The notes under the pieces were generated by a model that had not been told where the DNA came from, searched no databases, and saw only the letters and a list, made by a program, of their open reading frames with translations. A DNA stretch of 64,000 nucleotides from Deltaproteobacteria bacterium. Its GTDB lineage: Bacteria; Desulfobacterota; Binatia; Binatales; Binataceae. Positions 9,813-37,417 of this stretch are shown here, in pieces; position 1 is the stretch's first letter, and each line of letters starts with the position of its first letter. The stretch lies in the NCBI GenBank assembly GCA_021827495.1, contig JAKAVN010000001.1, positions 9,954-73,953 on the forward strand, in the 5' to 3' direction. A program made the position numbers and the translations under genes.

Positions 9813-10643
9813 ATGAACAAAGACAAGGTTCGCATTACCGATCTTGCCACGATGAAGGCGGAAGGCCGGCCGATCGCGATGCTGACGGCCTACGATTTTC
9901 CGTTCGCGCGGATCTTCGACCAGGCCGGCATCGACGTGCTGCTGGTCGGCGACAGTCTCGGTATGGTCGTGCAGGGTGCGGACAGCACGCTTGCCGTCAC
10001 CGTCGACGAGGTGCTGTACCACACTCGGATGGTGGCGCGGGCGCGCCGGCGCGCGCTGCTGGTGGCGGACATGCCGTTTCTCTCATATCAGGTGAGCGCG
10101 GAGAATGCGGTTCTGAACGCCGGCAGAATGCTCAAGGAGGGCGGTGCCGAGGCGGTCAAGCTGGAAGGCGGAATCTTGATCGCCGATACGGTGCACAAGC
10201 TGGTTGGCTTCGACATTCCGGTAATGGGCCATATCGGGCTGACACCCCAGTCGATCCATCGGATGGGTGGGCATCGCGTCCAGGGACGGCGCGCCGGCCA
10301 CGGTCCGGGATGCCGAGAGCGCTTGCTGGAGGATGCGGCGGCGCTGGAGGCGGCGGGGGCGTTTGCGATCGTGCTGGAAGGGATTCCGGCCGAGCTGGCC
10401 GGGGAAATTACCGCGCGCTCGGGCGTGCCCACGATCGGGATCGGCGCTGGCCCTTCGTGCGACGGCCAAGTGCTGGTGATGCACGACATGCTGGGGCTCA
10501 GCGAATCCTTCATGCCGCGCTTCGCCAAGCCCTACGCGCGTCTGTGGCATGACGCCGGCGCGGCCACCGCGGCCTACGTACGCGAGGTGCGCGAGCGCGC
10601 CTTTCCCGCCCCGGAACATTGTTACCGCATGAGGGAGGCCTGA
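9813..10643 (+). CDS. panB: 3-methyl-2-oxobutanoate hydroxymethyltransferase
   Basis: MNKDKVRITDLATMKAEGRPIAMLTAYDFPFARIFDQAGIDVLLVGDSLGMV... is a characteristic PanB sequence. The ORF-track start at 9750 would add 21 unlikely residues. Confidence 0.9.
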   Translation: MNKDKVRITDLATMKAEGRPIAMLTAYDFPFARIFDQAGIDVLLVGDSLGMVVQGADSTLAVTVDEVLYHTRMVARARRRALLVADMPFLSYQVSAENAVLNAGRMLKEGGAEAVKLEGGILIADTVHKLVGFDIPVMGHIGLTPQSIHRMGGHRVQGRRAGHGPGCRERLLEDAAALEAAGAFAIVLEGIPAELAGEITARSGVPTIGIGAGPSCDGQVLVMHDMLGLSESFMPRFAKPYARLWHDAGAATAAYVREVRERAFPAPEHCYRMREA

Positions 10644-10646
10644 ACG

Positions 10647-11504
10647 TTGAAAATCATAACGACTCCAGCGGAAATGCAATGCCGCTCCGACGCGATACGC
10701 CGCGCCGGCAAGCGCATCGCCTTCGTGCCCACGATGGGCTTCCTGCACGAGGGGCATCTCAGCCTGATGCGCGAAGGCAGGCGGCGCGCCGAGGTCGTGG
10801 TGGCCTCGATTTTCGTCAACCCTACGCAGTTCGGCCCCAACGAAGATTTCGGCCGCTACCCGCGCGCCTTCGAGCGCGACTGCGCGCTGATGCAAGAGGT
10901 GCCGGTTGATATCGTTTTTGCCCCGGCGCCGGAGGCGATGTATCCGGCGGGCGCGCAGACCTGGGTCGAGGTGGCGGAGATCACCAAGGGGCTCTGCGGC
11001 GCGCATCGCCCGGGCCACTTCCGCGGCGTCACCACGGTGGTCGCCAAGCTGTTCAACATCGTCAAGCCGCACTACGCGATATTCGGCGAGAAGGACTTTC
11101 AGCAGTTGCGCGCGATCCAGCGGATGGTCAAGGATCTCAACTTCGACCTCGAGATCGTGCCGATGCCGACCGTGCGCGAGTCCGACGGGCTCGCGCTGAG
11201 CTCGCGCAACGCCTACCTTTCGGCCGCCGAGCGCGAGCGCGCGCTCAGCCTCAGCCGCGCGCTGGAAGCCGCGCGCCGCGAATTTGCCGCCGGCGCCCGC
11301 GACCCGCGCGCGCTGGTGCGCGCGGCCTGCGCGGTGCTCAGCGCGACGCCTGAAATCCGCCTCGAGTACATCGAGGCGGTCGACTCCGAGTCGCTGGCGT
11401 CGATCGCGCGTGTCGAACGGCCGGTGGTGGTCGCGATCGCGACCCACGTCGGCAAGACGCGGCTCATCGACAACGCGGTCTTCACTCCACCGCCGCCGGG
11501 ATAA
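10647..11504 (+). CDS. panC: Pantoate--beta-alanine ligase
   Basis: FVPTMGFLHEGHLSLMR (HIGH-type) motif. It is adjacent to panB. It has a TTG start with a GAGGGAGG RBS 8 nt upstream. Confidence 0.9.
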   Translation: MKIITTPAEMQCRSDAIRRAGKRIAFVPTMGFLHEGHLSLMREGRRRAEVVVASIFVNPTQFGPNEDFGRYPRAFERDCALMQEVPVDIVFAPAPEAMYPAGAQTWVEVAEITKGLCGAHRPGHFRGVTTVVAKLFNIVKPHYAIFGEKDFQQLRAIQRMVKDLNFDLEIVPMPTVRESDGLALSSRNAYLSAAERERALSLSRALEAARREFAAGARDPRALVRAACAVLSATPEIRLEYIEAVDSESLASIARVERPVVVAIATHVGKTRLIDNAVFTPPPPG

Positions 11505-11576
11505 GCCCAGCGCGCGGCGTGCGCGCCCCGTGCGCGCGAGGCGCGGTGCCGCTGCGGGCCGGGGCGCAATGCCGCT

Positions 11577-12869
11577 CTAGCGGAAGTCCTGGCCGAGGCC
11601 GCCAGGCGTCGAGTACTTCTTGAGATCGTGGAACTTCTTGGGCACCTGCTGGTTGATGTAGGCTCCATGCCCGGCGCGGTCAATGCTGCCATAGAAAGTG
11701 GCGTGATGGCTCTGGAGGTCCCAGAAAATGTCGATCTGGGTGCCACTGAAGTCCTGCACGCCGAGCCCCGGCACCGCCCGCGCCATCGGCAGCACCGCGA
11801 AGCTCTTCCACAACTTCAGCCGCGTGTCGTAGAGGTCCTCCCACAGCGGCACGTAACTGTTCTTGTCGGCGTAGATGATGCGCTTGCCGAAGCAGTAGCC
11901 GGCGGTGAGCGACGGCACTCTGCGCACGTCGATGGCGTAAACGTCACGCAGTTCCCATGTGCCCCACGACGGCTTGGGCCATCCGAGCGGCATCGTGTAC
12001 TGCTCGGGGAATTTGCCGGCGTTGCCGTTGTAATTGATGAGCGCGAGAATCCTGCGCTCGCCGAGCAACTGCGAGGTGAACTCGGTGATGTTGCCGTCGA
12101 AGCCGTAGCGCAGGTCGTCGCGCGTCATGTCGCTTTTGCCCTGCAGGCAGCGCACGGCCCCGTTGAGTTGCGACGTGCGGCGCAGCGAAGGGATGAACTC
12201 GTAGACGTCCTGCGGGCGGGTGAGGTCCGAGTAGATGATGGTCAGATGCGCGCTGTACTTGGCCTCTTCGGGCTCCTCGACCATGCTCCATGCGGTGTAG
12301 TCCATGTCGCCCGCCCCCGGCGTGACCATCGGATATCCGGGATCGACGATGTGCTTGAGCGCGCGGTCGACGAAAATGTCGCGGCCGCAGGAGATGTTGC
12401 CGAACGGGTTCATGGCGCAGTCGGAACTGATGTTGGCCGGCGTCGACACGACCAGATGGGGCATGTAGCGGAACCACAGGTCGGCCAGGATCTCCCATCC
12501 GGCGTGCGTCCCGGCGGGATGGGGAAACGGAATGCCGGCGGTGTAGCCGGCCAGGTTGAAACTGCCGTTGGGCAGCGGCAACATCCTGACCTGCGCCGAA
12601 TATTTCTCGGTCGCGTCTAGGTAGGGCTTGGGCAGCGGATGGTTGCGGGTGGGGCCGACGACGATCTGAGCGTCAGCGGGCATCTTCCATGGATACTGGC
12701 CGGAAAACAGCGCGGCCATGCTGTCGGGCATGAACTGCTGATAGCTATGCCAGTTCTGCGTGGTGATCACGGTGCCGGGCGGAATCGGCGCGTCGGCTGC
12801 GAACACCACCGGCACAATCGCCACGGACATAAGGAGAGCGATCAAGGCAATTCTACGTACCAGAGCCAT
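11577..12869 (-). CDS. Secreted hypothetical protein (DUF1329-like?)
   Basis: Clean 430-aa ORF with an N-terminal signal peptide (MALVRRIALIALLMSVAIVPVVFAADAP). It is aromatic-rich; the family assignment is tentative. Confidence 0.55.
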   Translation of the reverse strand: MALVRRIALIALLMSVAIVPVVFAADAPIPPGTVITTQNWHSYQQFMPDSMAALFSGQYPWKMPADAQIVVGPTRNHPLPKPYLDATEKYSAQVRMLPLPNGSFNLAGYTAGIPFPHPAGTHAGWEILADLWFRYMPHLVVSTPANISSDCAMNPFGNISCGRDIFVDRALKHIVDPGYPMVTPGAGDMDYTAWSMVEEPEEAKYSAHLTIIYSDLTRPQDVYEFIPSLRRTSQLNGAVRCLQGKSDMTRDDLRYGFDGNITEFTSQLLGERRILALINYNGNAGKFPEQYTMPLGWPKPSWGTWELRDVYAIDVRRVPSLTAGYCFGKRIIYADKNSYVPLWEDLYDTRLKLWKSFAVLPMARAVPGLGVQDFSGTQIDIFWDLQSHHATFYGSIDRAGHGAYINQQVPKKFHDLKKYSTPGGLGQDFR

Positions 12870-25281: not shown

Positions 25282-26487
25282 ATGGCTTCAATCGCACCGC
25301 TTAGCGGGATCAAAGTTGTCGATCTCACCAAGCTCGCTCCCGGACCGCATTGCACAATGATCCTTGGCGACCTTGGCGCCGACATCATCAAGGTCGAGGA
25401 ACCCGGCGCGCCCACCGGCCGGCGCGCCGAGCAGGCCGCCGCCGCGGGCAAGACGCAGCGGCGCGGAACCGGGCTGGGCCTGCACAACGCGCTTGGGCGT
25501 AACAAGAAATCGATCGGACTTAATCTCAAGAGCGGGCCGGGACGCGAAATTTTCTTGCGCATGACGCAGCGCGCCGACGTGGTGGTCGAGGAGTTCCGCC
25601 CCGGCGTCGCCAAGCGGCTGGGGATCGACTACCCGATGCTGTCGGCGCGCAATCCGCGGCTGGTGTATTGCGCGGTGACTGGCTTCGGCCAGACCGGACC
25701 GTACCGCGACTACGTCGGTCACGACCTCAACTACATAGCGCAGGGCGGCGCGCTCTCGATGATTGGGCGCAAGGACCAGCCGCCGACGATTCCGCAGAAC
25801 CTGCTCGCCGATTACGCGGGCGGCGGCATGCATGCGGCGATCGGAGTGCTCGCCGCACTGCTCGCGCGCCATCAGACCGGCCGCGGACAGTACGTGGATA
25901 TCGCGATGCTGGACGGGACGATGCTGCTGATCGCGCAGGCGCTCTCGAACCACTTCGGCAAGGGCTGGATTCCCCGCCGCGGCGCAACCACGCTCGACGG
26001 CTCGGCACCCTACTACAACCTGTACCTGACCAAGGACGAGAAATATATCACGATCGGCTCCGTGGAGCCGTGGTTCTACGCCAACCTGTGCCGCGCGCTC
26101 GGCGCCGAGGAATACATCCAGGACGAGTACAACAGCGCCCGCTTCGACGAGATCAAGGCGCGCTTCGCCGAAATCTTCAAGACCAAGACGCGCGAGGAGT
26201 GGTGGGAGATACTTACGCGCAACGACATCTGCGTGGGCCGGATGCTGACGCTCGACGAACTTGAGCACGACCCGCAAATCCGCGCGCGCAACATGATCGT
26301 CGAGGTCGAGGCGCCAACCGGCGAGAAGGTCAAGCAGGTCGGCATTTCGGTCAAGCTCTCCGAGACGCCCGGCTCGATCCGCTCGCTGGCGCCCAGGCTC
26401 GGCCAGCATACCGATGAAATCCTGGCCGATTTGGGCTACGGCCAGCACGACATCGAGCGCTGGCGCTCCGAAGGCGCGATCCGGTAG
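25282..26487 (+). CDS. CoA-transferase family III (CaiB/BaiF) protein
   Basis: GIKVVDLT...[20 protein letters not shown]-terminus and a conserved Asp-containing core (VVEEFRPG). It carries an unusual ~45-aa Arg/Ala/Gly-rich insertion after IKVEEPG. Confidence 0.8.
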
Positions 26488-29065: not shown

Positions 29066-31072
29066 ATGCGAACGATGCGGCCACTGGCGCTGCGCACTGA
29101 CGAGTTCAACTACGCGCTGCAAATCCTGCTCGCGGCAATGGTCGGCGTACTGGCCGCGCTCGGCAATCTGGGCTTCAGCGCGTTCATCAAATTCTTCACC
29201 TGGGTCTTTCTCAAGCTTGAATGGGGCGCGCTTGGAATCGCGCACGGCGGCCTCCGGCTTGGCCTGGTGCCGGTGGTCCTGCTGACCGGCGGCGCCGGCA
29301 TGATCCTGCTCGACTGGCTATTTCCGGGCGACGTGCTCGGCTACGGCTTCCCGAATTTTCTCGAGATGGTGAATCTCGGCAGCGCGCGCATCAAGCGCCG
29401 CTGGATCGTGCTCAAGGCGCTGGGCGCGGCGCTGTCGCTCGGCTGCGGCGCCTCGGTCGGACGCGAGGGCCCGATCGCGCAAATCGGCGGCGCGATTGGC
29501 TCGGCGGTCGCGCAACTGCGCCGCCTGCCGGCCGACCGCGCCAAGGTCCTGGTTGCGGCCGGCGCGGGCGCCGGCATCGCCACCACCTTCAACGCCCCGG
29601 TCGGCGGCGTGCTGTTCGCGCAGGAGATCGTCCTGCTCGGCGAGACCGAGCTCACCAACCTGACGCTGCTGCTGGTCTCGACCGTGAGCGCGGTGGTCTT
29701 TTCGCGCGCGATTACCGGCAACGCCGCCGTCTTCCAGGCCCCGTTTTTCGTGCTGCGCAGTTACTGGGAGCTTTTGTCTTACGCCTTGATGGGCGCGTTG
29801 ATGGGCGCGCTGAGCGCCGCGTACATACATTTCTTTCATGCTACCGCGAAGGCCTTCCGCGCGCTGAAGGCGCCACAGTGGGCGCGGCTCGCGCTGGGCC
29901 TGCTGGTGGTCGGCCTGGTCGCGATCCCGCTGCCGCGGAACCTGTCCGACGGCTACCCGGTGATCAATCTCGCGATGGAAGGGCGTTTCGCGCTCGGGAC
30001 GACGCTTGCGCTGACCGCAGCCAAGTTCTTCACCTCCAGCGTGTCGCTCGGATGCGGCGCGCCGGGCGGGGTGTTCGGCCCGACCTTCTTCATCGGGACC
30101 ATGGCGGGGGCGACCTTCCAGCGCACGATGGCTTCGGTGGTGCCGCGGATCACCGGCCCGCGCGGATCGTACGCGCTGGTTGGATTGGGCACGTTCCTCG
30201 GCGGCGTGACGCACGCGCCGCTGACTGCAATTTTTCTGCTGCTCGACATGACCCAGAACTACCAGGTCGCGCTGCCCGCGATGATCGCGGTGGTGGTGGC
30301 GCTGGTGGTGGCGCGCGCGCTCGAGCACGAGTCGATCGACACCTATCGCCTCGCGCGCGAGGGCAAGACGCTCGAAATTGGCAGGGAGCGCCTGGTGCTG
30401 ACGCAGATTCCGGTCGAGAGCGTGATGACGCACGAGCCCGCGGCCGTGCGCTCCAGCGCCACGCTCGCACAGGTTCTGCAAGCGGCCGGTGATACCGCGC
30501 AAACCACGCTCCCGGTGGTCGATGACCACGGCGGCCTGGTCGGCCTTATCGTGACGCACGACCTAGTCGCGATGCTGAGCAGCCAGGCTGACGTGGCGGG
30601 CTTGGTCAACGCCTACGACCTCTGCCGGCGCAACTGCCCGATGGTGAGCAGCGGCTCCAGCCTCGACGAAGCCGTGCAGTTGATGGGGTCCGAGGACCTC
30701 GAGGAATTGCCGGTGGTGGAGAAACATCGCCTGGTCGGCATCGTCGCGCGCAAGGAGATCGCGCAGGTGCTGAACCGGATGACGGTGTCGCTCTCGACGC
30801 TCGCCAATACCGGCACCAGCATTTTCTGGGCGACCGGCTACCGCCTGATGCGCATCACCGTGCCCGAGACGGCGCGCGGCAAGACCATGATCGAGCTTGC
30901 GCCGCGCGCGCGTTTCGGCGTGAGCGTGCTCGCAGTGCAAAATGCAGCCGAGGAAGCTAACGGCTTCGTCCCAATCACGCCCGACCGCAAGCTCAATCAG
31001 GGCGATACGATCATGGCCGCGGGCCGCCCGCCCGATCTCCGCCGCTTCGTGCGCGAATTGGAAGGGTCGTAA
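29066..31072 (+). CDS. ClC-family voltage-gated chloride channel with C-terminal CBS pair and TrkA-C-like domain
   Basis: GREGP selectivity motif (GREGPIAQIGG), GxFxP motif (GVFGPTFF), many TMs and a cytosolic CBS/TrkA-C tail. Confidence 0.8.
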   Translation: MRTMRPLALRTDEFNYALQILLAAMVGVLAALGNLGFSAFIKFFTWVFLKLEWGALGIAHGGLRLGLVPVVLLTGGAGMILLDWLFPGDVLGYGFPNFLEMVNLGSARIKRRWIVLKALGAALSLGCGASVGREGPIAQIGGAIGSAVAQLRRLPADRAKVLVAAGAGAGIATTFNAPVGGVLFAQEIVLLGETELTNLTLLLVSTVSAVVFSRAITGNAAVFQAPFFVLRSYWELLSYALMGALMGALSAAYIHFFHATAKAFRALKAPQWARLALGLLVVGLVAIPLPRNLSDGYPVINLAMEGRFALGTTLALTAAKFFTSSVSLGCGAPGGVFGPTFFIGTMAGATFQRTMASVVPRITGPRGSYALVGLGTFLGGVTHAPLTAIFLLLDMTQNYQVALPAMIAVVVALVVARALEHESIDTYRLAREGKTLEIGRERLVLTQIPVESVMTHEPAAVRSSATLAQVLQAAGDTAQTTLPVVDDHGGLVGLIVTHDLVAMLSSQADVAGLVNAYDLCRRNCPMVSSGSSLDEAVQLMGSEDLEELPVVEKHRLVGIVARKEIAQVLNRMTVSLSTLANTGTSIFWATGYRLMRITVPETARGKTMIELAPRARFGVSVLAVQNAAEEANGFVPITPDRKLNQGDTIMAAGRPPDLRRFVRELEGS

Positions 31073-31074
31073 GC

Positions 31075-31371
31075 CTAGGAACTGGCCGCGCCACCTCTGC
31101 TTTGCTTCTCGATCTCCTTCATCTCATTGACCTTGTCGAGAATGTGGAAAGACTGCACCGCTGATGCCAGCTCCGCCTCCGAGAGCTTGTCCAATATTGA
31201 GGATATCTGGCGCTGCTCCGGCGCGAGCGTGAGTTGGAGCGTCAGGTCCTTGAGAACGGTAGACAGATGGTAGGCCACGGCAGGCTGAGAAACTCCCGAT
31301 ACTGCGGAGGAGACGCTGCTTATCAGGTCCAGCAGCTTTCGCTTCACGGCTTCTTCCTGTTCGGTACTCAT
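31075..31371 (-). CDS. Small HTH (ArsR-like winged-helix) putative transcriptional regulator
   Basis: GVSQPAVAYHLSTVLKD resembles the ArsR/SmtB recognition helix (G-SQ-AVSHHL-VL). Local GC is ~55% against ~67% for the window. Confidence 0.4.
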   Translation of the reverse strand: MSTEQEEAVKRKLLDLISSVSSAVSGVSQPAVAYHLSTVLKDLTLQLTLAPEQRQISSILDKLSEAELASAVQSFHILDKVNEMKEIEKQSRGGAASS

Positions 31372-31376
31372 TGCTT

Positions 31377-31760
31377 TTAATCCTTCACGCTGGTCAGGTT
31401 GCGGATCGCTTCGTCGGTCTGCGTCTTGGTCGACTCTCCGTAGCGGCGACCAACCTCCTGCGTTAGTAGTCTCGCCCCTCCAATTCCTGATAGTAGCGCG
31501 CCTGCTAGAGTGCGCAAATCGAGCTTTGCAACTCCCGCCAGGTCAACGGCTCCGAGCGGGCCGTAAAATATCGCCATGATAACTGCGGTGACTCCGCCGA
31601 CCAGGGCATTTCCAGGGAAACCTGGCCGCCAAATGCGCTGACCATTCACCAAGCGATCCATCTGAGGCATCAAGAAACCGCCGTCGGAAAGATAGGCATT
31701 GAGAAGCCCGCCGACGAGACCCATGACGAAGAGCAAAAGAATGACCTGATAGGACCGCAT
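31377..31760 (-). CDS. Hypothetical small membrane protein
   Basis: MRSYQVILLLFVMGLVGGLLNAYL plus a second TM (GGVTAVIMAIFYGPLG). Low-GC segment; start chosen at the internal Met. Confidence 0.4.
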   Translation of the reverse strand: MRSYQVILLLFVMGLVGGLLNAYLSDGGFLMPQMDRLVNGQRIWRPGFPGNALVGGVTAVIMAIFYGPLGAVDLAGVAKLDLRTLAGALLSGIGGARLLTQEVGRRYGESTKTQTDEAIRNLTSVKD

Positions 31761-31812
31761 TTTGTCTCCCCCACAGTTTGCGCCCAGCCACTTTAAGCCC
31801 AGGCGAGGCCGT

Positions 31813-32487
31813 TTAGCTATTGGCGGATGGGGCGGGCGCGGCGTCGAAGCGCAAGGGGCGGACGCGGCCAGCGCGCAGTTCGGCGCATAGCCCCTCGATA
31901 TCGCTGACCTGGCGCTCGAGCTCGGTCGCACAGGTCAGAAACCATTTCGGGCTCACGAAATGCGCGTCGCTGCCGCCGACCCCGGCGAGGCCCAGCTTCT
32001 CCATCGCGGTCAGCGCCGCTGCGTTCTCGCGCGGCGAGTTCTGCCCGTTGAGCGCCTCGATCACGCCCAGCGCCGAGCCGTGGCGCGCGAGCAGATCGTC
32101 CAGTTGCGGGCCAAAGCCCGAATCGCGGAAAGGATGCGCCGGGATCGCGATTCCGCCCTCGCCGTGGATCACTTCGATCAGCGCCTCGCTCTTGAGCATC
32201 CGCGCACTCAGGTCGAAGCGGCGAAGCACTTCGCGCGTCACGCCGAAGAGCAGCAGATGGCCGAGGTTGGTGTCGGCCTCGATGCCCTTGAACACCATCA
32301 CGCCGAACCGTTCCGCCAGCTCGGCGTAATGCCGGTCGAGCTCCGGATCGGCCGGGAACAGGCGATGCTCGGTGAAGCAGAGCGCGTCGAGGCGGCGCGG
32401 CCCGCGCGCGGCGGCCTCGAGATACTGCTCGGGCGTGATGTTGGAGTCGGAAGAGAGCAGCGTATGGACGTGCAGGTCGATGAGCAT
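31813..32487 (-). CDS. PHP-domain (polymerase/histidinol-phosphatase family) metal-dependent phosphoesterase
   Basis: MLIDLHVHT start with downstream His/Asp metal ligands (FTEH, IPAHPF, GGSDAH). The ORF-track start at 32769 would read through the tandem repeat, so the start is placed at 32487. Confidence 0.7.
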   Translation of the reverse strand: MLIDLHVHTLLSSDSNITPEQYLEAAARGPRRLDALCFTEHRLFPADPELDRHYAELAERFGVMVFKGIEADTNLGHLLLFGVTREVLRRFDLSARMLKSEALIEVIHGEGGIAIPAHPFRDSGFGPQLDDLLARHGSALGVIEALNGQNSPRENAAALTAMEKLGLAGVGGSDAHFVSPKWFLTCATELERQVSDIEGLCAELRAGRVRPLRFDAAPAPSANS

Positions 32488-32540
32488 AACGCAACGATTC
32501 TCACATTTGCCGGCGCGGCTTGGAAAGCCGCTGCGCGATC

Positions 32541-32635
32541 TTCGCGCCGCCCGTTTCGCGCCGCCCGTTTCGCGCCGCCCGTTTCGCGCCGCCCGTTTCG
32601 CGCCGCCCGTTTCGCGCCGCCCGTTTCGCGCCGCC
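32541..32635. repeat. Perfect 14-bp tandem repeat (TTCGCGCCGCCCGT) x 6 plus a partial seventh copy, intergenic
   Basis: Read directly at 32541-32624 as six identical units; the seventh diverges after 11 nt. It lies between the kinase stop (32649) and the PHP start (32487). Confidence 0.9.
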
Positions 32636-32648
32636 GGCGCGGGCGTTA

Positions 32649-34271
32649 CTATGGGCCGGCCGGAGAGTCGCGCACGCGGAGGCTGTTGTTGAAGGAAACC
32701 ACGCCTGCAACGCTCTGCGCGAGCAGCAGCACGGCCGCATTGTCGGCCGCACTTGGCACCGTGCCCCACAGTTGCATCGTGTCGCCCACCATCCGGAAGT
32801 GCACCGAATCGTAGCCGCTCGCGTCGAGCGCGGCGCGAAAAGCCTCCAGCCGTGCGGCGAGGAACTGCGAAGGTCCGGGCGGGGAGCCAGGCGCGGGGGC
32901 CTCGGGCGCCACGTCAGGCGCCGGCACGTCAGACGCCGGCGCGCTGGCGCGGCTCGCGTCGGGCGGGTTGCCGCCGGTGACGTTCAGGCACGCCTTCACG
33001 GCCGCGAAGGCGAGTACGAAGATGAGCATCAGCACCAGGATGGGGCGACGCGCGCCATGCGTGCGATGGTAGAGCCGTGCGCGGCGCGGCGGCACGTGCG
33101 GCCGCGTCTGGGTCGATGGCGGCACCGAGAGCACCACGGTCTCGGCTTCGTGATCGGCCGCAACATCAGCGTTGCCGGGCGCGAGGCTCACCTCCGCGCC
33201 GCAAAAGGAACAGAAGCGCGAGTCGGAGGGAATCGGGCGTTCGCATTTCGGGCAGTCGATGTCCGCTGCCGCACTGAGCAGGGTTGGCGCGGACGGCGAC
33301 GCGGGTTGCGGCGCGCGAGCGCTCCCCAGCGGCAAGCGAAGCTGCGAGCGCGCGGGGCTGGACGCCGCGTGTGGTAGCGCCGTTGATTGCGATGCTCCGG
33401 CCGCTAACGGATATGCCCCGCTGTCTGTGTGGTTGGCCGACGGTGGCGCCGCCGCGGCCGCCGGAGCGGCGCTGTCGCGAATCTCCTCCAGCCGGCGCTT
33501 GAACTCCGCCGCGCTCGGCACCCGGCGCTCGACGTCGTAGGCGAGCGCGCCGTCGACCAGCGCCGCCAGCGCGGGCGCGGCGCCGGGGCATAGCGTGGCG
33601 AGCGGCGGAAAGCTGAACGGCGCTTCGTTGGCCGGGTCGCGCCCGCTTAGCGCGTGATGCATCGTCGCACCGAGCGCGTAGAGGTCCGAGCGCAGTTCGA
33701 CCTTCCCGCGGTACTGCTCGGGCGGCGCGTAGCCCTGAGTGCCGATCATGGTCGCGTTCTGCTCCGGCTGGAAATGGCGCGCGATGCCGAAGTCGATGAG
33801 CTTGGCCTGCCCGTTGGCGATCAGCATCACGTTGGATGGCTTGAGGTCGCGGTAGATGACCGGCGGCTGAAGACCATGCAGGTAGGCGAGGGTGTCGAGG
33901 ATTTGCAGCGCGATGTCGATGACGCGCGTCTCGGCGAGCCGTCCGCCCGCGCGCTTCATCTCCTCCTCGAGCGTCGCGCCGTCGATGTATTCCATCACCA
34001 GGTAGTGATGGTTTTGTTCGCTGAAGCGGTCGAACACGCGGGGGATGTGCTCGTTGCTCAGCCGCGCCAGCATGTCAGCCTCGCGCTGGAAGGCGTCGAC
34101 CGCCTGGCGCTGCGCGTCGGGGTTGGTGAAGTTGTCGATCACCTCGGCCAGCGCGCAGCGGCGCGCCGCCAGGCGCAGGTCTTCGGCCAGGTAGACCAGC
34201 TTCATCCCGCCGCCGCCGAGCGGCTTTACGACACGGTAGCGGCCGCCGACTATGGTGTTTGGCGCAATCAT
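32649..34271 (-). CDS. Ser/Thr protein kinase with zinc-ribbon, transmembrane segment and C-terminal BON domain
   Basis: Hanks kinase motifs: GGGGMKLVY, VIYRDLKPSN, DFG, APE. A CPKCERPIPSDSRFCSFCG zinc ribbon and a TM (ILVLMLIFVLAFAAV) follow. C-terminus is BON-like (VHFRMVGDTMQLWGTV...AGVVSFNNSLRV). Confidence 0.8.
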   Translation of the reverse strand: MIAPNTIVGGRYRVVKPLGGGGMKLVYLAEDLRLAARRCALAEVIDNFTNPDAQRQAVDAFQREADMLARLSNEHIPRVFDRFSEQNHHYLVMEYIDGATLEEEMKRAGGRLAETRVIDIALQILDTLAYLHGLQPPVIYRDLKPSNVMLIANGQAKLIDFGIARHFQPEQNATMIGTQGYAPPEQYRGKVELRSDLYALGATMHHALSGRDPANEAPFSFPPLATLCPGAAPALAALVDGALAYDVERRVPSAAEFKRRLEEIRDSAAPAAAAAPPSANHTDSGAYPLAAGASQSTALPHAASSPARSQLRLPLGSARAPQPASPSAPTLLSAAADIDCPKCERPIPSDSRFCSFCGAEVSLAPGNADVAADHEAETVVLSVPPSTQTRPHVPPRRARLYHRTHGARRPILVLMLIFVLAFAAVKACLNVTGGNPPDASRASAPASDVPAPDVAPEAPAPGSPPGPSQFLAARLEAFRAALDASGYDSVHFRMVGDTMQLWGTVPSAADNAAVLLLAQSVAGVVSFNNSLRVRDSPAGP

Positions 34272-34288
34272 CGCGGAGGTCGCGGTAA

Positions 34289-34666
34289 TTACTGCGGCCG
34301 CGGCCCTGCCGTCAACGCCTGGGAGGCGCGCATCCCGCGCCGCTCGGCGTCTAGGGTAGCGGCGCGCGCCGCCGACACCGCGCAGACCAAATGAATCAGC
34401 ACGCCCAGCGAGGACGAAGTGCCATAGGCGAACAGCACTGCGAAAAACCAGCCGATCGCGCGCCCGGTGCGTCCGGCGTAGAAATGGCCCAGCCCCGGCA
34501 TCACGCTCAGCGCGAAGGCGACCACTGCGGGCGCATTCAGCTCGGCGAGCCATCCCGAACCGCCCAGCCGGGCGCCGCACTCCTTGCAAAAAACGGCCTC
34601 GGCGACCATCACCGGCTGGCCGCATTGCGAACAGAAGCGCGCGCGTGTCGCGCCGGTGTCAGCCAT
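34289..34666 (-). CDS. Small zinc-ribbon membrane protein
   Basis: CSQCGQ...CKECG zinc ribbon followed by two TMs. It overlaps the upstream FHA gene by 8 nt. Confidence 0.5.
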   Translation of the reverse strand: MADTGATRARFCSQCGQPVMVAEAVFCKECGARLGGSGWLAELNAPAVVAFALSVMPGLGHFYAGRTGRAIGWFFAVLFAYGTSSSLGVLIHLVCAVSAARAATLDAERRGMRASQALTAGPRPQ

Positions 34667-35948
34667 GGAACACAAACGGCGCGTCGCCCAGGCGCACGTC
34701 GTCGCCGTTGGCGAGCGGGCGCGTACCGTCGATCCGTTGGCCGCCGACGAAGGTGCCGTTCTGGCTGGCCAGGTCGCGCAGCGCGAAACCGCCGTCCTGC
34801 GGCACGATGCTCGCGTGATGGCGCGAGACCGAGGCGTCGGCGATCACGATGTCATTGTCGATCGCGCGGCCCAAGGTCGTCGGCGCTTTTGGGCGCAACT
34901 CGTAGCGGCGCCCGTTAACGTCGACCAGGCACGGCGTCGCCATCCGTCCGACGTGCGGCGGCACCGCGGCTCGCGGCGGCGCGGAGGTCGGCGCGCCATC
35001 CTGGCGGACGATGGCCGGACGCGGCCCGGCGCCGGCGCGCTTGAGATGAAAGCTCAATTCATAGCCGGCGATCTTGATCCGGTCGCCCTCGCTCAGCTCG
35101 GCGGTTTCGATCCGGTTACCGTTCAAGAATACGCCCTGCTGCACGGCGAGATTTTTCAGCACGTAGCTGTTGCCGTGGCGCTCGATAACCGCATGGCGCG
35201 GCTGCACGCCGGGATCGCCGAACAGCCCGACCACGTTTTCCTCGGCGCGCCCGAGCGTCGCCACCGAACGATCGATGTTGAAGCTGCGCCCGCGCAGCCG
35301 CCCGGCCTCGACGTTGAGCCAGGCGCTCTTGGTCAGCTCCTGCACCAGCCCGATCAGCAGCCCGATCATCAGGCCGACGACGCTCAGCCCAATCAGGCGT
35401 GAGACCAGGCCGCCGCCCGTCAGCACGTTGAGCGGATCGAAGGCGAGCCCGCCGATGAAGCCGCCGACCCATCCCCCAATGCCGCCCTTGAGGATGTTGC
35501 GTAGCGAGAAGCTCGCAAGCCCGACGCCCGCGCCCGCCATCAGACCCATCAGCGTCCAGCTCGCCGTGCGGGCCGCCATGAGGTAGGCGATCGAGACGGG
35601 CTGCACACCGAATCCGACGTACGCCAGGATTTTTGAGAAGACGACGTTGGAATAGTAGACAGCCGGAATCCCGAGCGCGAAGCAGATCAGGAAGCCGCGC
35701 AGGAGGCGGCGCTTGGCGAGCGGCGTGACCTCGAGACGCTTGCCCTCCGCGGCCAGGATCAGTCCGCCGATCGCGCCCAGCAGCAGCGCCATCGAGAGGG
35801 TCCCGCTCCACAGCATCCAAGGAGTCTGCGGCTCGGTAAGGGTCCGGTTGTGGTTGACCAGTTCGACCGGGAGCCATCCGATCGCGCCGCCGGCGAGGCC
35901 AGCCAGCGCCTTGAAGGCAAGTTCGCGCCGGTCGATCTCATCGTTCAT
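34659..35948 (-). CDS. Polytopic membrane protein with two C-terminal FHA (forkhead-associated) domains
   Basis: ~6 TMs in the N-terminal 230 aa. Two FHA-like modules follow: ...TLGRAEENVVGL...VLKNLAVQQGVFLNGNRI and ...TLGRAIDNDIVIAD...SRHHASI...LRDLASQNGTFVGGQRI. Confidence 0.7.
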   Translation of the reverse strand: MNDEIDRRELAFKALAGLAGGAIGWLPVELVNHNRTLTEPQTPWMLWSGTLSMALLLGAIGGLILAAEGKRLEVTPLAKRRLLRGFLICFALGIPAVYYSNVVFSKILAYVGFGVQPVSIAYLMAARTASWTLMGLMAGAGVGLASFSLRNILKGGIGGWVGGFIGGLAFDPLNVLTGGGLVSRLIGLSVVGLMIGLLIGLVQELTKSAWLNVEAGRLRGRSFNIDRSVATLGRAEENVVGLFGDPGVQPRHAVIERHGNSYVLKNLAVQQGVFLNGNRIETAELSEGDRIKIAGYELSFHLKRAGAGPRPAIVRQDGAPTSAPPRAAVPPHVGRMATPCLVDVNGRRYELRPKAPTTLGRAIDNDIVIADASVSRHHASIVPQDGGFALRDLASQNGTFVGGQRIDGTRPLANGDDVRLGDAPFVFHG

Positions 35949-36178
35949 CGCGGCGCTCCTCGATCAGGATTTGGCGCAAGGTTTTTTGACAGAGGATTCG
36001 GCATAGGCTTGGCGCGGTGCCGCGGCTGACGGCATTGATCAGTATAATAACCCGGCCTGCGGATGCGGCAAACGTCGGGCGAAGCCTTGGCGTCGCGGGC
36101 GCGCGCGGGTTGCCCCCTTCGGCGCAAACAGTGCATGATTCGCTGTTGCAGGAAGGCGTTAATCACCAGGAGGTCGCG

Positions 36179-37417
36179 ATGGCGGAGAAGACCCTTGTAC
36201 CCGAGACATTCGGACCGCTTCAGGGGGTCAAAATTATTTCGAACGGCACCTTGGTCGCGCAGCCCTTCGCCGCCGCGCTGGCCGCCGACATGGGCGCCGA
36301 AGTCATCCAGGTCGAGCGCCCCGGCGTGGGCGATGTGGGATGGCGCAACGTCGGCATCCGCCTCAAGACGCGCGACGGTAAGGGCGAGACCGCGACCAAC
36401 TGGGTACAGGAGCGGCGCAACGTCTTCTGCATCTCGCTCGATCTTACCAAGCCGCGCGGGCGCGAGCTGTTCCTGCGCCTGGTCGAGCGCGCCGATATCT
36501 GGATGGAAAGCTCGAAGGCCGGTACCTATCCGAGATGGGGCCTCGACGACGCCGCGGTATGGAAGGTCAATCCGAAGCTGGTGATTGCCCACGTCAGCTC
36601 CTACGGCTTGTATGGCCATCCCGACTACATCGGGCGCACCTCGTACGACATCGTGGGCCAGGCCTTTGGCGGCATCATGCAGCAGACCGGCTTTCCCGAG
36701 ACGCCGCCCGTGCGCGCCGCACCGTGGACGGGCGACTACCTCACGGCGCTGTTCACGCTGTGGTCGTCGCTGGCGGGGCTGACCTACGCGCGCAGCTTTG
36801 GCAAGGGCCAGGCGATCGACATCGCACAGTACGAGGCGATCCATCGCACGCTCGGCGGCACGATGGTCGAGTACTTCCAGCAGGGACTGGTGCGCCAGCG
36901 CTCGGGCAACAAGGCGCAGGGTTTCCAGCCGCTGGACAGCTTCGAGGCCAGCGACGGATGGGTGGTGCTGGGCGCGATCGGCGAGGTCTATGACCGCGTC
37001 GTGCGCGCGATCGGGCTGGACCCGGCCGATCCGAAGTGGCAAAAGGCGCGGCTCGAGATCGAGTCGATGGAGGGGATCGAGTTCGATGCGCTGCTGCGCG
37101 GATGGATCAACGAGCGGACCGCCGATGAAGTCGTGCGGCACATGAACCGGCACAACGTCGCCTGCAGCCGGATCATGTCGAGCAAGGAGATGGCGGAGAA
37201 CGAGCAGTACAAGGCGCGCGAAATGCACGTCGAATGGACCGACGAGCAGGCCGGCAGGGTCAAGGGCATCGGGATAGTGCCGAAGTTCTCGGCCACGCCG
37301 GGCAAGGTCTTCCGCGGCGCGGCCGGAGTCGGCCACGACAACGAGCGGGTCTATGGCGGGCTGCTGGGGCTTAAGCCGGCGGAGATCGAGGGGCTTAAAC
37401 GCGACAAGATAATCTAG
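36179..37417 (+). CDS. CoA-transferase family III (CaiB/BaiF) protein
   Basis: GVKIISNGTLVAQPFAAALAADMGAEVIQVE N-terminus. CAGGAGG RBS before the ATG at 36179. Confidence 0.8.
   Translation: MAEKTLVPETFGPLQGVKIISNGTLVAQPFAAALAADMGAEVIQVERPGVGDVGWRNVGIRLKTRDGKGETATNWVQERRNVFCISLDLTKPRGRELFLRLVERADIWMESSKAGTYPRWGLDDAAVWKVNPKLVIAHVSSYGLYGHPDYIGRTSYDIVGQAFGGIMQQTGFPETPPVRAAPWTGDYLTALFTLWSSLAGLTYARSFGKGQAIDIAQYEAIHRTLGGTMVEYFQQGLVRQRSGNKAQGFQPLDSFEASDGWVVLGAIGEVYDRVVRAIGLDPADPKWQKARLEIESMEGIEFDALLRGWINERTADEVVRHMNRHNVACSRIMSSKEMAENEQYKAREMHVEWTDEQAGRVKGIGIVPKFSATPGKVFRGAAGVGHDNERVYGGLLGLKPAEIEGLKRDKII

Follow-up and report, generated by a model that had tools for sequence, protein, structure and literature searches.

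The lysine of strand beta3, within the VAIK motif, is the residue most used to call a protein kinase alive or dead. The WNKs are cited as the only functional family of eukaryotic protein kinases without it (Kannan 2007, PMC1821047): in WNK1 a lysine of strand beta2 serves catalysis (Kannan 2007, PMC1821047; PMC12599244), and a 2025 review states that ATP binding by WNKs is promoted by the lysine that has migrated to beta2 (PMC12599244). In bacteria, a 2025 atlas of ~300,000 kinases sorted into 42 families recognises seven pseudokinase families without the VAIK lysine, and bacterial pseudokinase families generally lose HRD and/or DFG residues too; the atlas cites WNK solely as a eukaryotic parallel, and its text contains neither Binatia nor a beta2-lysine family (bioRxiv 10.1101/2025.01.12.632604). 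A second system of interest is the PknF-Rv1747 pair of Mycobacterium tuberculosis, in which the kinase gene has as its neighbour a gene for a membrane transporter bearing two FHA domains (PMC8339232). I describe here a group of four genes, contained in a 64-kb stretch of Binataceae DNA (hereafter the window; contig JAKAVN010000001.1, GC content ~67%), that brings the two themes together: a membrane protein with two FHA domains, a small zinc-ribbon membrane protein, a receptor Ser/Thr kinase and a PHP-type phosphoesterase (Table 1). The account that I favour, with somewhat better than even confidence, is that these genes form an operon for a phospho-signalling module that is embedded in the membrane and reports on the cell envelope, and that the catalytic lysine of its kinase has moved from beta3, where Ala42 now stands, to beta2, as Lys24. 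The operon alone is a variant of a well-known kind of system; the relocated lysine is its notable point, and was missed by the first-pass annotation of this DNA.

The kinase domain scores 121 bits against Pfam PF00069 (cut-off 31.7), has 114 full-length homologues (54-100% identity), and finds its closest solved relatives in StkP and PknB. It had been credited with a complete Hanks catalytic core. Strand beta3 does not bear this out, since it reads C39-A-L-A42-E where PknB, StkP and all close canonical relatives read A-[VI]-K-E, Ala42 being aligned to a lysine in StkP and in 70+ canonical relatives. A lysine is found instead in the glycine-rich loop (G-loop), which reads GGGGMK24LVY in contrast to GGMG/S-x-VY in PknB, StkP and close canonical relatives, position 24 being that of the third glycine of GxGxxG. 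Pairwise alignment to what I take to be the WNK1 sequence (GRGSFK233TVY, C250) places K24 on K233 and A42 on C250. Both K24 and A42 are invariant in the 28 aligned homologues, and the motif pair GGGGMK.VY...CALAE is present in 116 of the 120 closest ones, the four exceptions being N-terminally truncated or bearing single substitutions. The other catalytic residues are invariant as well, namely E64, Y-R141-D142-L-K144-P-S-N147, D160-F-G, P-P-E185, D196 and R250, and so are T174 and T178 of the activation loop. The DFG region reads I-D160-F-G-I-A-R, hence DFG, and not the DLG of the WNK chloride site.

The distribution of the two residues was surveyed by an exhaustive comparison of the kinase domain with 1.84 billion cluster representatives, the best 150 representatives of 50%-identity clusters being typed. 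Fifty-nine of these have K24/A42, 59 have G24/K42 and none has a lysine at both positions, the remaining canonical variants combining S, A, T or C at position 24 with K42; the K/A counts reflect one evolutionary event, and the very small Fisher P value is therefore not independent replication. In a neighbour-joining (NJ) tree built after deletion of columns 24 and 42, all 49 K/A sequences, one K/S and one K/I sequence make up one clade that nests among canonical bacterial kinases, with no canonical kinase inside it and with Lys24 in all 51 members. Positions 24 and 42 are the only ones, among 265 aligned, to be at least 85% conserved in the clade and at most 15% shared with canonical relatives. 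These comparisons point to a relocation of the lysine that arose once, by a two-residue swap. The relocation looks convergent with that of eukaryotic WNKs because the kinase is no kin of theirs: it is 29% identical to WNK1, as against 36-49% (best-segment tblastn identity) to canonical bacterial kinases, and the best solved matches are StkP and PknB.

The C-terminal modules of the clade members vary (FGE-sulfatase, TPR, Sel1, TIR, BON), many members keep a zinc ribbon after the kinase domain, and every member with a named taxon comes from Binataceae or Binatus. In the Binataceae, the scaffold with the relocated lysine seems to have served as the basis of a whole repertoire of receptor kinases. 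K24/A42 paralogues with FGE-sulfatase, TPR, Sel1 or TIR modules include P0245, P0255, P0246, P0251, P0266, P0297 and P0319. A further K24/A42 kinase, of 684 aa, lies at 9818-11872 of locus L010, on a contig labelled 'Proteobacteria bacterium'; it has two zinc ribbons, an extra one at the N-terminus and another ahead of the transmembrane (TM) segment, together with an unrecognised ectodomain, and its context is unrelated, with no FHA, zinc-ribbon or PHP neighbours.

Loss of the beta3 lysine could mean that the protein is a pseudokinase, which would no longer transfer phosphate but would serve the FHA protein as a membrane scaffold under BON regulation; the FHA domains would then bind phosphothreonines produced by another kinase. 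The VAIK lysine position is an alanine in every member, FHA1 is itself degenerate (see below), and the survey of bacterial kinases gives the label of pseudokinase to all families without the VAIK lysine (bioRxiv 10.1101/2025.01.12.632604). However, in the bacterial pseudokinase families known, the HRD Asp and/or the DFG Asp is usually missing as well (bioRxiv 10.1101/2025.01.12.632604), whereas here every other catalytic residue and the activation-loop threonines are invariant; moreover, the loss is paired with an invariant lysine at the exact WNK position, and nothing else sets the clade apart. I consider the scaffold hypothesis unlikely. The combination of an unchanged active site with the swap suggests a compensated relocation rather than decay, and by analogy with K233 of WNK1, Lys24 would take over the role of the beta3 lysine, which would leave the enzyme active. 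If so, the Lys24/Ala42 kinases would be the first bacterial family with a lysine moved from beta3 to beta2, independently of the WNKs, with a pocket that might confer anion sensitivity; this whole proposition I advance tentatively, rating it a little short of even. The published literature, of which coverage was incomplete, yielded no bacterial kinase described as having a beta2 lysine, which is not proof of novelty.

The rest of the kinase has the layout of a receptor. As annotated at first pass, a zinc ribbon of the CxxC-x10-CxxC type (C340-C357) and one TM helix follow the catalytic domain, which is also extended by a Pro/Ala-rich spacer. Two short threonine motifs flank the ribbon in an otherwise variable cytoplasmic linker, and the cysteines of the ribbon, T330, L332, T378 and L381 are all invariant in the aligned homologues. 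Over the 114 full-length homologues, the loose TxxL pattern is present in every sequence and its specific form, T-[V/F]-x-L, in ~85 or more. Judging from these patterns, the T330 and T378 motifs are candidate phospho-docking sites for FHA2, pT-x-x-L being a plausible FHA ligand.

The C-terminal domain had been annotated as an OsmY-like BON domain, and this assignment stands in spite of a sub-threshold Pfam score in the window kinase (17.2-21.5 bits for PF04972, cut-off 27). The Pfam BON family is matched at E <= 1 by 28 of 32 kinase homologues (best 5e-7), and a profile made from the C-terminal 76 aa of these 32 sequences matches OsmY of Escherichia coli in both its BON repeats (E = 5.5e-7) and also the BON domain of Rv0899. 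The AlphaFold2 (AF2) model of the domain, with a predicted local distance difference test score (pLDDT) of 89, has the alpha-beta-beta-alpha-beta order of elements (H3-21, E27-31, E34-41, H44-58, E62-69), and Foldseek ranks OsmY first among its structural matches (8rjx, TM-score 0.68), followed by DolP, CdsD, Rv0899, Kbp and BonA. The identity of this ~66-aa domain as a BON domain is therefore well supported at the family level by profile and predicted fold. BON domains bind anionic phospholipid in DolP and K+ in Kbp, and OsmY is osmotically induced. By analogy, it is reasonable to infer that the receptor senses the state of the envelope or osmotic conditions.

The obvious partner of such a kinase is the polytopic membrane protein encoded by gene 1, which has 117 full-length homologues (55-100% identity, the named ones from Binataceae) and matches Pfam FHA PF00498 over two stretches (119 bits). 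It had been described as having about six TM segments and two phosphothreonine-binding FHA domains. Six helices are indeed modelled and both FHA domains are recognised, but FHA1 lacks the Ser and Asn that contact the phosphate. Across the family it has GVQPRHA and VQQGV in place of the canonical SxxH and SxNGT, so that Gly-Arg and the His are kept while Gln/Pro and Gln replace the contact Ser and Asn. In FHA2, by contrast, GR, SVSRHHA and SQNGT are at least 95% conserved over the 117 homologues. The two domains are joined by a linker of 30-66 aa that is variable and usually, but not always, contains Thr; a conserved phospho-acceptor in this linker was considered and rejected, given its variability and the Thr-free homologues counted below.

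The small protein of gene 2 consists of an N-terminal CxxC-x11-CxxC zinc ribbon, which resembles the kinase's own, followed by a DUF6677-like two-helix hairpin. Its Pfam scores are sub-threshold in the window protein, while homologues reach 26.7 for Zn_Ribbon_1 (cut-off 25) and 32.2 for DUF6677 (cut-off 24.3). The gene is present in all related loci. Domain searches thus agree with the earlier view of a Ser/Thr kinase signalling operon of this architecture.

Conservation of the arrangement in related genomes, which the first-pass annotation had proposed to check, is complete: the order FHA membrane protein, zinc-ribbon membrane protein, kinase, PHP is kept in 14 of 14 related Binataceae loci covering the region. 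In the species-representative genome collection, all four genes have the same order and orientation in L001, L002, L004-L009 and L045, among which kinase identity goes down to 50% (L003 is too short to show the arrangement), and L083-L088, found through individual proteins, have the identical arrangement. The usual flanks in related loci are a divergent CoA-transferase gene upstream and a convergent ClC channel gene (CBS + TrkA_C) downstream. Loci L081 and L082 also have the four genes, with 54%, 42%, 55% and 75% identity to those of the window, but lie amid FemAB-like/ClpS/ClpA and luciferase-like/histidine-biosynthesis genes, with neither the CoA-transferase nor the ClC gene. The recurrence of the usual flanks could mean that the whole region is simply syntenic, a concern that L081 and L082 settle in part: because they keep the four genes amid other flanks, these genes move together as one unit, to which neither the ClC nor the CoA-transferase gene belongs. 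The PHP gene is downstream of the kinase gene, on the same strand, in every locus examined, and directly adjacent to it except in L005. Homologues of all four proteins that come from named organisms belong to Candidatus Binataceae or Candidatus Binatus, or bear the older labels 'Deltaproteobacteria' and 'delta proteobacterium'. Taken together, gene order and linkage argue for a real operon, conserved as a unit in uncultured Binataceae. No account of this four-gene operon was found in the published literature; coverage was incomplete and this does not prove novelty.

Two of these loci call for a remark of their own. The gene inserted between kinase and PHP in L005 (11922-13235, same strand) encodes a 437-aa protein with an N-terminal signal-like sequence. 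In L045, the kinase frame breaks at 11092-11097, between zinc ribbon and TM, the tblastn match being split over two frames; proteins P0061 and P0070 (L045 kinase) are truncated. The break is either a sequencing frameshift in the GC-rich linker or a real disruption.

A ClC gene converges on PHP both in the window and in 13 related loci, which raises the question of whether the module is a chloride or osmotic regulator of the adjacent channel, and thereby a bacterial functional analogue of the WNK pathway. The WNK-type lysine of the kinase and the BON domain that it shares with osmotically induced OsmY would suit such a role. However, the ClC gene is not co-transcribed with the module because it is convergent to it, it is missing from L081 and L082 where the four genes persist, and a low-GC insert parts it from PHP in the window; the kinase, for its part, has DFG and not the DLG of the WNK chloride site, and is PknB-like by phylogeny. 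A WNK-style link to ClC was rejected on account of the convergent orientation and of L081/L082, and I hold it to be very improbable. The ClC neighbour appears, from these comparisons, to be a matter of local synteny and not a member of the module.

One may also ask whether the cluster serves in defence against phages, as a system of the PD-T4-6-like or MADS-like kind based on a Ser/Thr kinase. Over many genomes, however, the locus lies among metabolic genes in stable synteny of a core-like kind, whereas defence genes are typically found in variable islands. The kinase domain does match the PADLOC models for PD-T4-6 (up to 198 bits) and mad6, with weak NCBIfam matches to MAD6 and PglW in addition. 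These PADLOC matches cover only the generic kinase domain (aa 1-~300); among the other proteins, PHP has a single weak match, and none was obtained for the FHA protein or the zinc-ribbon protein. The defence hypothesis was rejected because the matches are those of a generic kinase domain, and among the alternatives considered here I find it the hardest to credit.

The part played by the PHP protein is a more delicate question. It had been suggested at first pass that the protein might be the cognate phosphatase of the kinase, given that PHP proteins include protein phosphatases of the CpsB/YwqE type. The protein (Pfam PHP_C 4.8e-10, PHP 5.3e-7) is the best conserved of the four, with 64-90% identity in related loci, and its metal-binding motifs DLHVHT, EH, AHP and GSDAH are invariant. 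The similarity to CpsB/YwqE was not recovered, since no chain of this type was retrieved from the PDB at E <= 1 by the protein or by a 22-sequence profile, and an NCBIfam search gave no CpsB/YwqE match. The PDB matches, all weak and partial, are RNase AM (7ug9, 5e-7, to which only the C-terminal half aligns), the PHP phosphoesterase 9etk, histidinol phosphatases, PsfC and the pAp phosphatase Cv1693, and the NCBIfam scores are well below all cut-offs (RNase RNM 34.5 bits versus 375, CehA/McbA 66 versus 80). By sequence the protein thus resembles phosphoesterases of the TrpH/RNase AM type, not CpsB/YwqE. The first-pass annotation had set both a generic TrpH-type protein and a non-conserved arrangement against its own reading; the PHP protein is TrpH-like, yet the arrangement is conserved.

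CpsB and YwqE are tyrosine phosphatases, and this kinase should make phosphoserine and phosphothreonine; to my knowledge, the PHP protein phosphatases described so far are tyrosine-specific. Since the protein is not CpsB/YwqE-like and those enzymes act on tyrosine, what is left of the cognate-phosphatase idea comes from the conserved linkage and from the lack of a PP2C phosphatase gene nearby. Linkage to the kinase is seen in every locus examined, including the rearranged L081 and L082, and PHP stays downstream despite the inserted gene of L005. A query that I take to represent a PstP-like PP2C found no such gene in the 64 kb of the window, nor within 10 kb on either side in the Binataceae loci L001-L009 and L045, a scan that extended to these regions, not to whole genomes, and left out L081-L088, whereas it found one within 10 kb, often adjacent, in 26 of ~70 other kinase loci (L011-L080). 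It is conceivable, although in my view rather doubtful, that the PHP enzyme stands in for the PP2C usual beside bacterial Hanks kinases.

These elements can be assembled into a working model of the favoured module. The periplasmic BON ectodomain would sense the membrane, lipid or ionic (osmotic) state and control activation of the kinase. The kinase, with K24 replacing the beta3 lysine, would then autophosphorylate on T174 and T178 of its activation loop, and probably also on the invariant juxtamembrane T330 and T378-x-x-L motifs. The canonical FHA2 domain of the six-helix protein would dock on one such phosphothreonine, upon which the kinase would phosphorylate the FHA protein, possibly in the disordered FHA1-FHA2 linker, and thereby change the state of its membrane domain. 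The small zinc-ribbon protein would be a third membrane subunit. The PHP enzyme would reset phosphorylation or handle a small phospho-ester, which is the weakest step of the model.

Several points weigh against this reading. Absence of the beta3 lysine would normally earn a kinase the label of pseudokinase, and it is only from the WNK precedent that K24 may be expected to reach ATP and E64. BON ligands are diverse, phospholipid in DolP and K+ in Kbp, so that the domain does not by itself point to one signal. The six-helix domain has no relative of known function, searches having given no PDB fold match (TM-score <= 0.32) and no Pfam family for aa 1-215, and the FHA1-FHA2 linker has no conserved Thr, 13 of the 117 homologues having none there at all. 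Among characterised enzymes, those most closely related to the PHP protein have nucleotides, RNA or small phospho-esters as substrates, not proteins. Finally, most of the synteny data come from one bacterial family, in which vertical inheritance alone keeps neighbours together, and the module is separated from its flanks in one locus type only, that of L081/L082.

Table 1. Features of the four-gene locus and its surroundings (positions in the window; strand given as - where assigned).
Feature	Coordinates	Strand	Details
Gene 1: polytopic membrane protein, two cytoplasmic FHA domains	34659-35948	-	429 aa open reading frame (ORF); Pfam FHA x2 1e-34
Six-helix membrane domain, aa 1-215	35304-35948	-	AF2 pLDDT 82, predicted TM-score (pTM) 0.78; conserved Gly-rich motifs GGWVGGF, LVQELTK
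FHA1, aa 219-296	35061-35294	-	Degenerate at phosphothreonine-contact residues
FHA2, aa 346-427	34668-34913	-	Canonical phosphothreonine-binding FHA
Gene 2: small zinc-ribbon membrane protein	34289-34666	-	125 aa, ATG start
Gene 3: receptor Ser/Thr kinase	32649-34271	-	540 aa; Pkinase 6e-35
Lys24 codon	34200-34202	-	Third-glycine position of G-loop; equivalent to WNK1 K233, PKA G55
Ala42 codon	34146-34148	-	Beta3 VAIK lysine position; equivalent to PKA K72, WNK1 C250
P-T330-x-L motif	33273-33290	-	Flanks zinc ribbon; PTxL in 111-112/114 homologues
Juxtamembrane zinc ribbon C340-x2-C-x10-C-x2-C357	33201-33254	-	Zn_Ribbon_1 26.5 bits (cut-off 25)
T378-x-x-L381 motif	33126-33146	-	Flanks zinc ribbon, opposite side from T330
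Single TM helix, aa 411-429	32985-33041	-	Kyte-Doolittle hydropathy peak 2.84
Periplasmic BON domain, aa 470-535	32667-32864	-	Family profile against OsmY and predicted fold
Gene 4: PHP + PHP_C metal-dependent phosphoesterase	31813-32487	-	224 aa; Pfam PHP_C + PHP
Sigma-70-like promoter candidate	36044-36071	-	TTGCCG-16-TATTAT, 9/12 consensus match, nothing more
Perfect 14-nt tandem repeat x 6.8 (GCGGCGCGAAACGG on minus strand)	32541-32635		Tandem Repeats Finder, 100% matches
Small two-TM ORF after PHP	31377-31760	-	127 aa
Small soluble-protein ORF after PHP	31075-31371	-	98 aa

The first three genes are co-directional on the minus strand, as annotated at first pass, and are closely packed: genes 1 and 2 overlap by the 8 nt then reported (34659-34666), while the spacer between genes 2 and 3 is one of 17 nt (34272-34288) and not of 18. 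The kinase starts at the ATG at 34271, which gives the MIAPNT N-terminus of all homologues; the longer ORF 32649-34625 was rejected as the kinase gene because every homologue begins at MIAPNT. The sole promoter-like match within 30900-36300 is the candidate listed in Table 1, ~95 nt upstream of gene 1 and inside the divergent intergenic region. Terminator-like sites in the region are no more frequent than in shuffled sequence and show no excess inside the operon.

Between the kinase and PHP genes lie 161 nt (32488-32648), 95 of which belong to the tandem repeat after which the PHP gene had, correctly, been placed. This 14-nt array is the only one of its kind in the window, the closest relative, L045, has no repeat at the equivalent position, and no association with a terminator or a promoter was found for it; a function for the array was dropped on these grounds. 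It looks like a recent microsatellite-like expansion, possibly variable in length, and could affect the coupling of PHP expression to the kinase.

Beyond PHP, a patch of 55-58% GC (31075-31850) lies between the PHP and ClC genes, with flanks at 67-72%; it probably came in as a small piece of foreign DNA. The 3' end of PHP overlaps that of the ClC gene in L083 and L086-L088. The two small ORFs of this patch have no Pfam or PADLOC match and no counterpart in any related locus, and were rejected as members of the module for their lack of homologues in related loci and their low-GC setting. The window also contains two paralogues of CoA-transferase family III (25288-26433 and 36176-37417; 26% identical to each other), and in related loci a second CoA-transferase copy is likewise present, a few kb past the ClC gene.

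If the reading proposed for the kinase is true, this second, independent relocation of the lysine would show that the solution is reachable by a simple two-residue swap, and would caution that automated 'pseudokinase' calls in surveys of bacterial kinomes can be wrong. The K/A clade and its G/K sisters, ~50% identical, would then make up a minimal natural pair for asking what relocation buys, anion or osmolyte sensitivity being a candidate. The operon would also be a concrete signalling module for the Binataceae, an uncultured and globally distributed lineage, with a PHP enzyme in the place usually taken by a PP2C phosphatase.

How the locus stands with respect to described systems can be seen component by component. 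WNK1, reportedly described by Xu et al. in 2000 and, in its structure, by Min et al. in 2004, has in common with the kinase the replacement of the beta3 lysine by a small residue (Cys250 in WNK1, Ala42 here), the lysine at the third-glycine G-loop position in beta2, and the retention of the alphaC Glu, the catalytic loop and the activation-loop phospho-sites. The kinase differs in not being of WNK descent, in having DFG, in lacking the autoinhibitory and CCT-like domains as well as SPAK/OSR1 partners, and in being a single-pass receptor. PknB and StkP are closest in sequence and share the N-terminal cytoplasmic Hanks domain with its two activation-loop threonines, the juxtamembrane linker, the single TM and the extracytoplasmic sensor; unlike these, the kinase has a single BON sensor in place of PASTA repeats, a zinc ribbon before the TM, a relocated catalytic lysine and no PP2C partner nearby. 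OsmY, DolP, Kbp and BonA share fold and sequence profile with the sensor, but those proteins are soluble or lipid-anchored with one or two BON domains, whereas the single BON domain here serves a kinase as its ectodomain. TrpH/YciV (RNase AM) and Cv1693 are the best solved relatives of the gene 4 protein, with which they share the PHP + PHP_C organisation and intact metal-binding motifs; the gene 4 protein is shorter (224 aa versus ~290), its matches are partial and weak (5e-7 at best), and its gene is in tight linkage with a kinase operon. In logic, the characterised system most like the present one is PknF-Rv1747, in which, as here, a Hanks kinase gene lies beside that of a polytopic membrane protein with two cytoplasmic FHA domains and a disordered linker. 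The FHA domains of Rv1747 are, however, N-terminal to an ABC transporter, whereas those of the protein described here are C-terminal to a six-helix domain that has no ATPase and belongs to no recognisable family, with no ABC domain in aa 1-215, and the first of them is degenerate.

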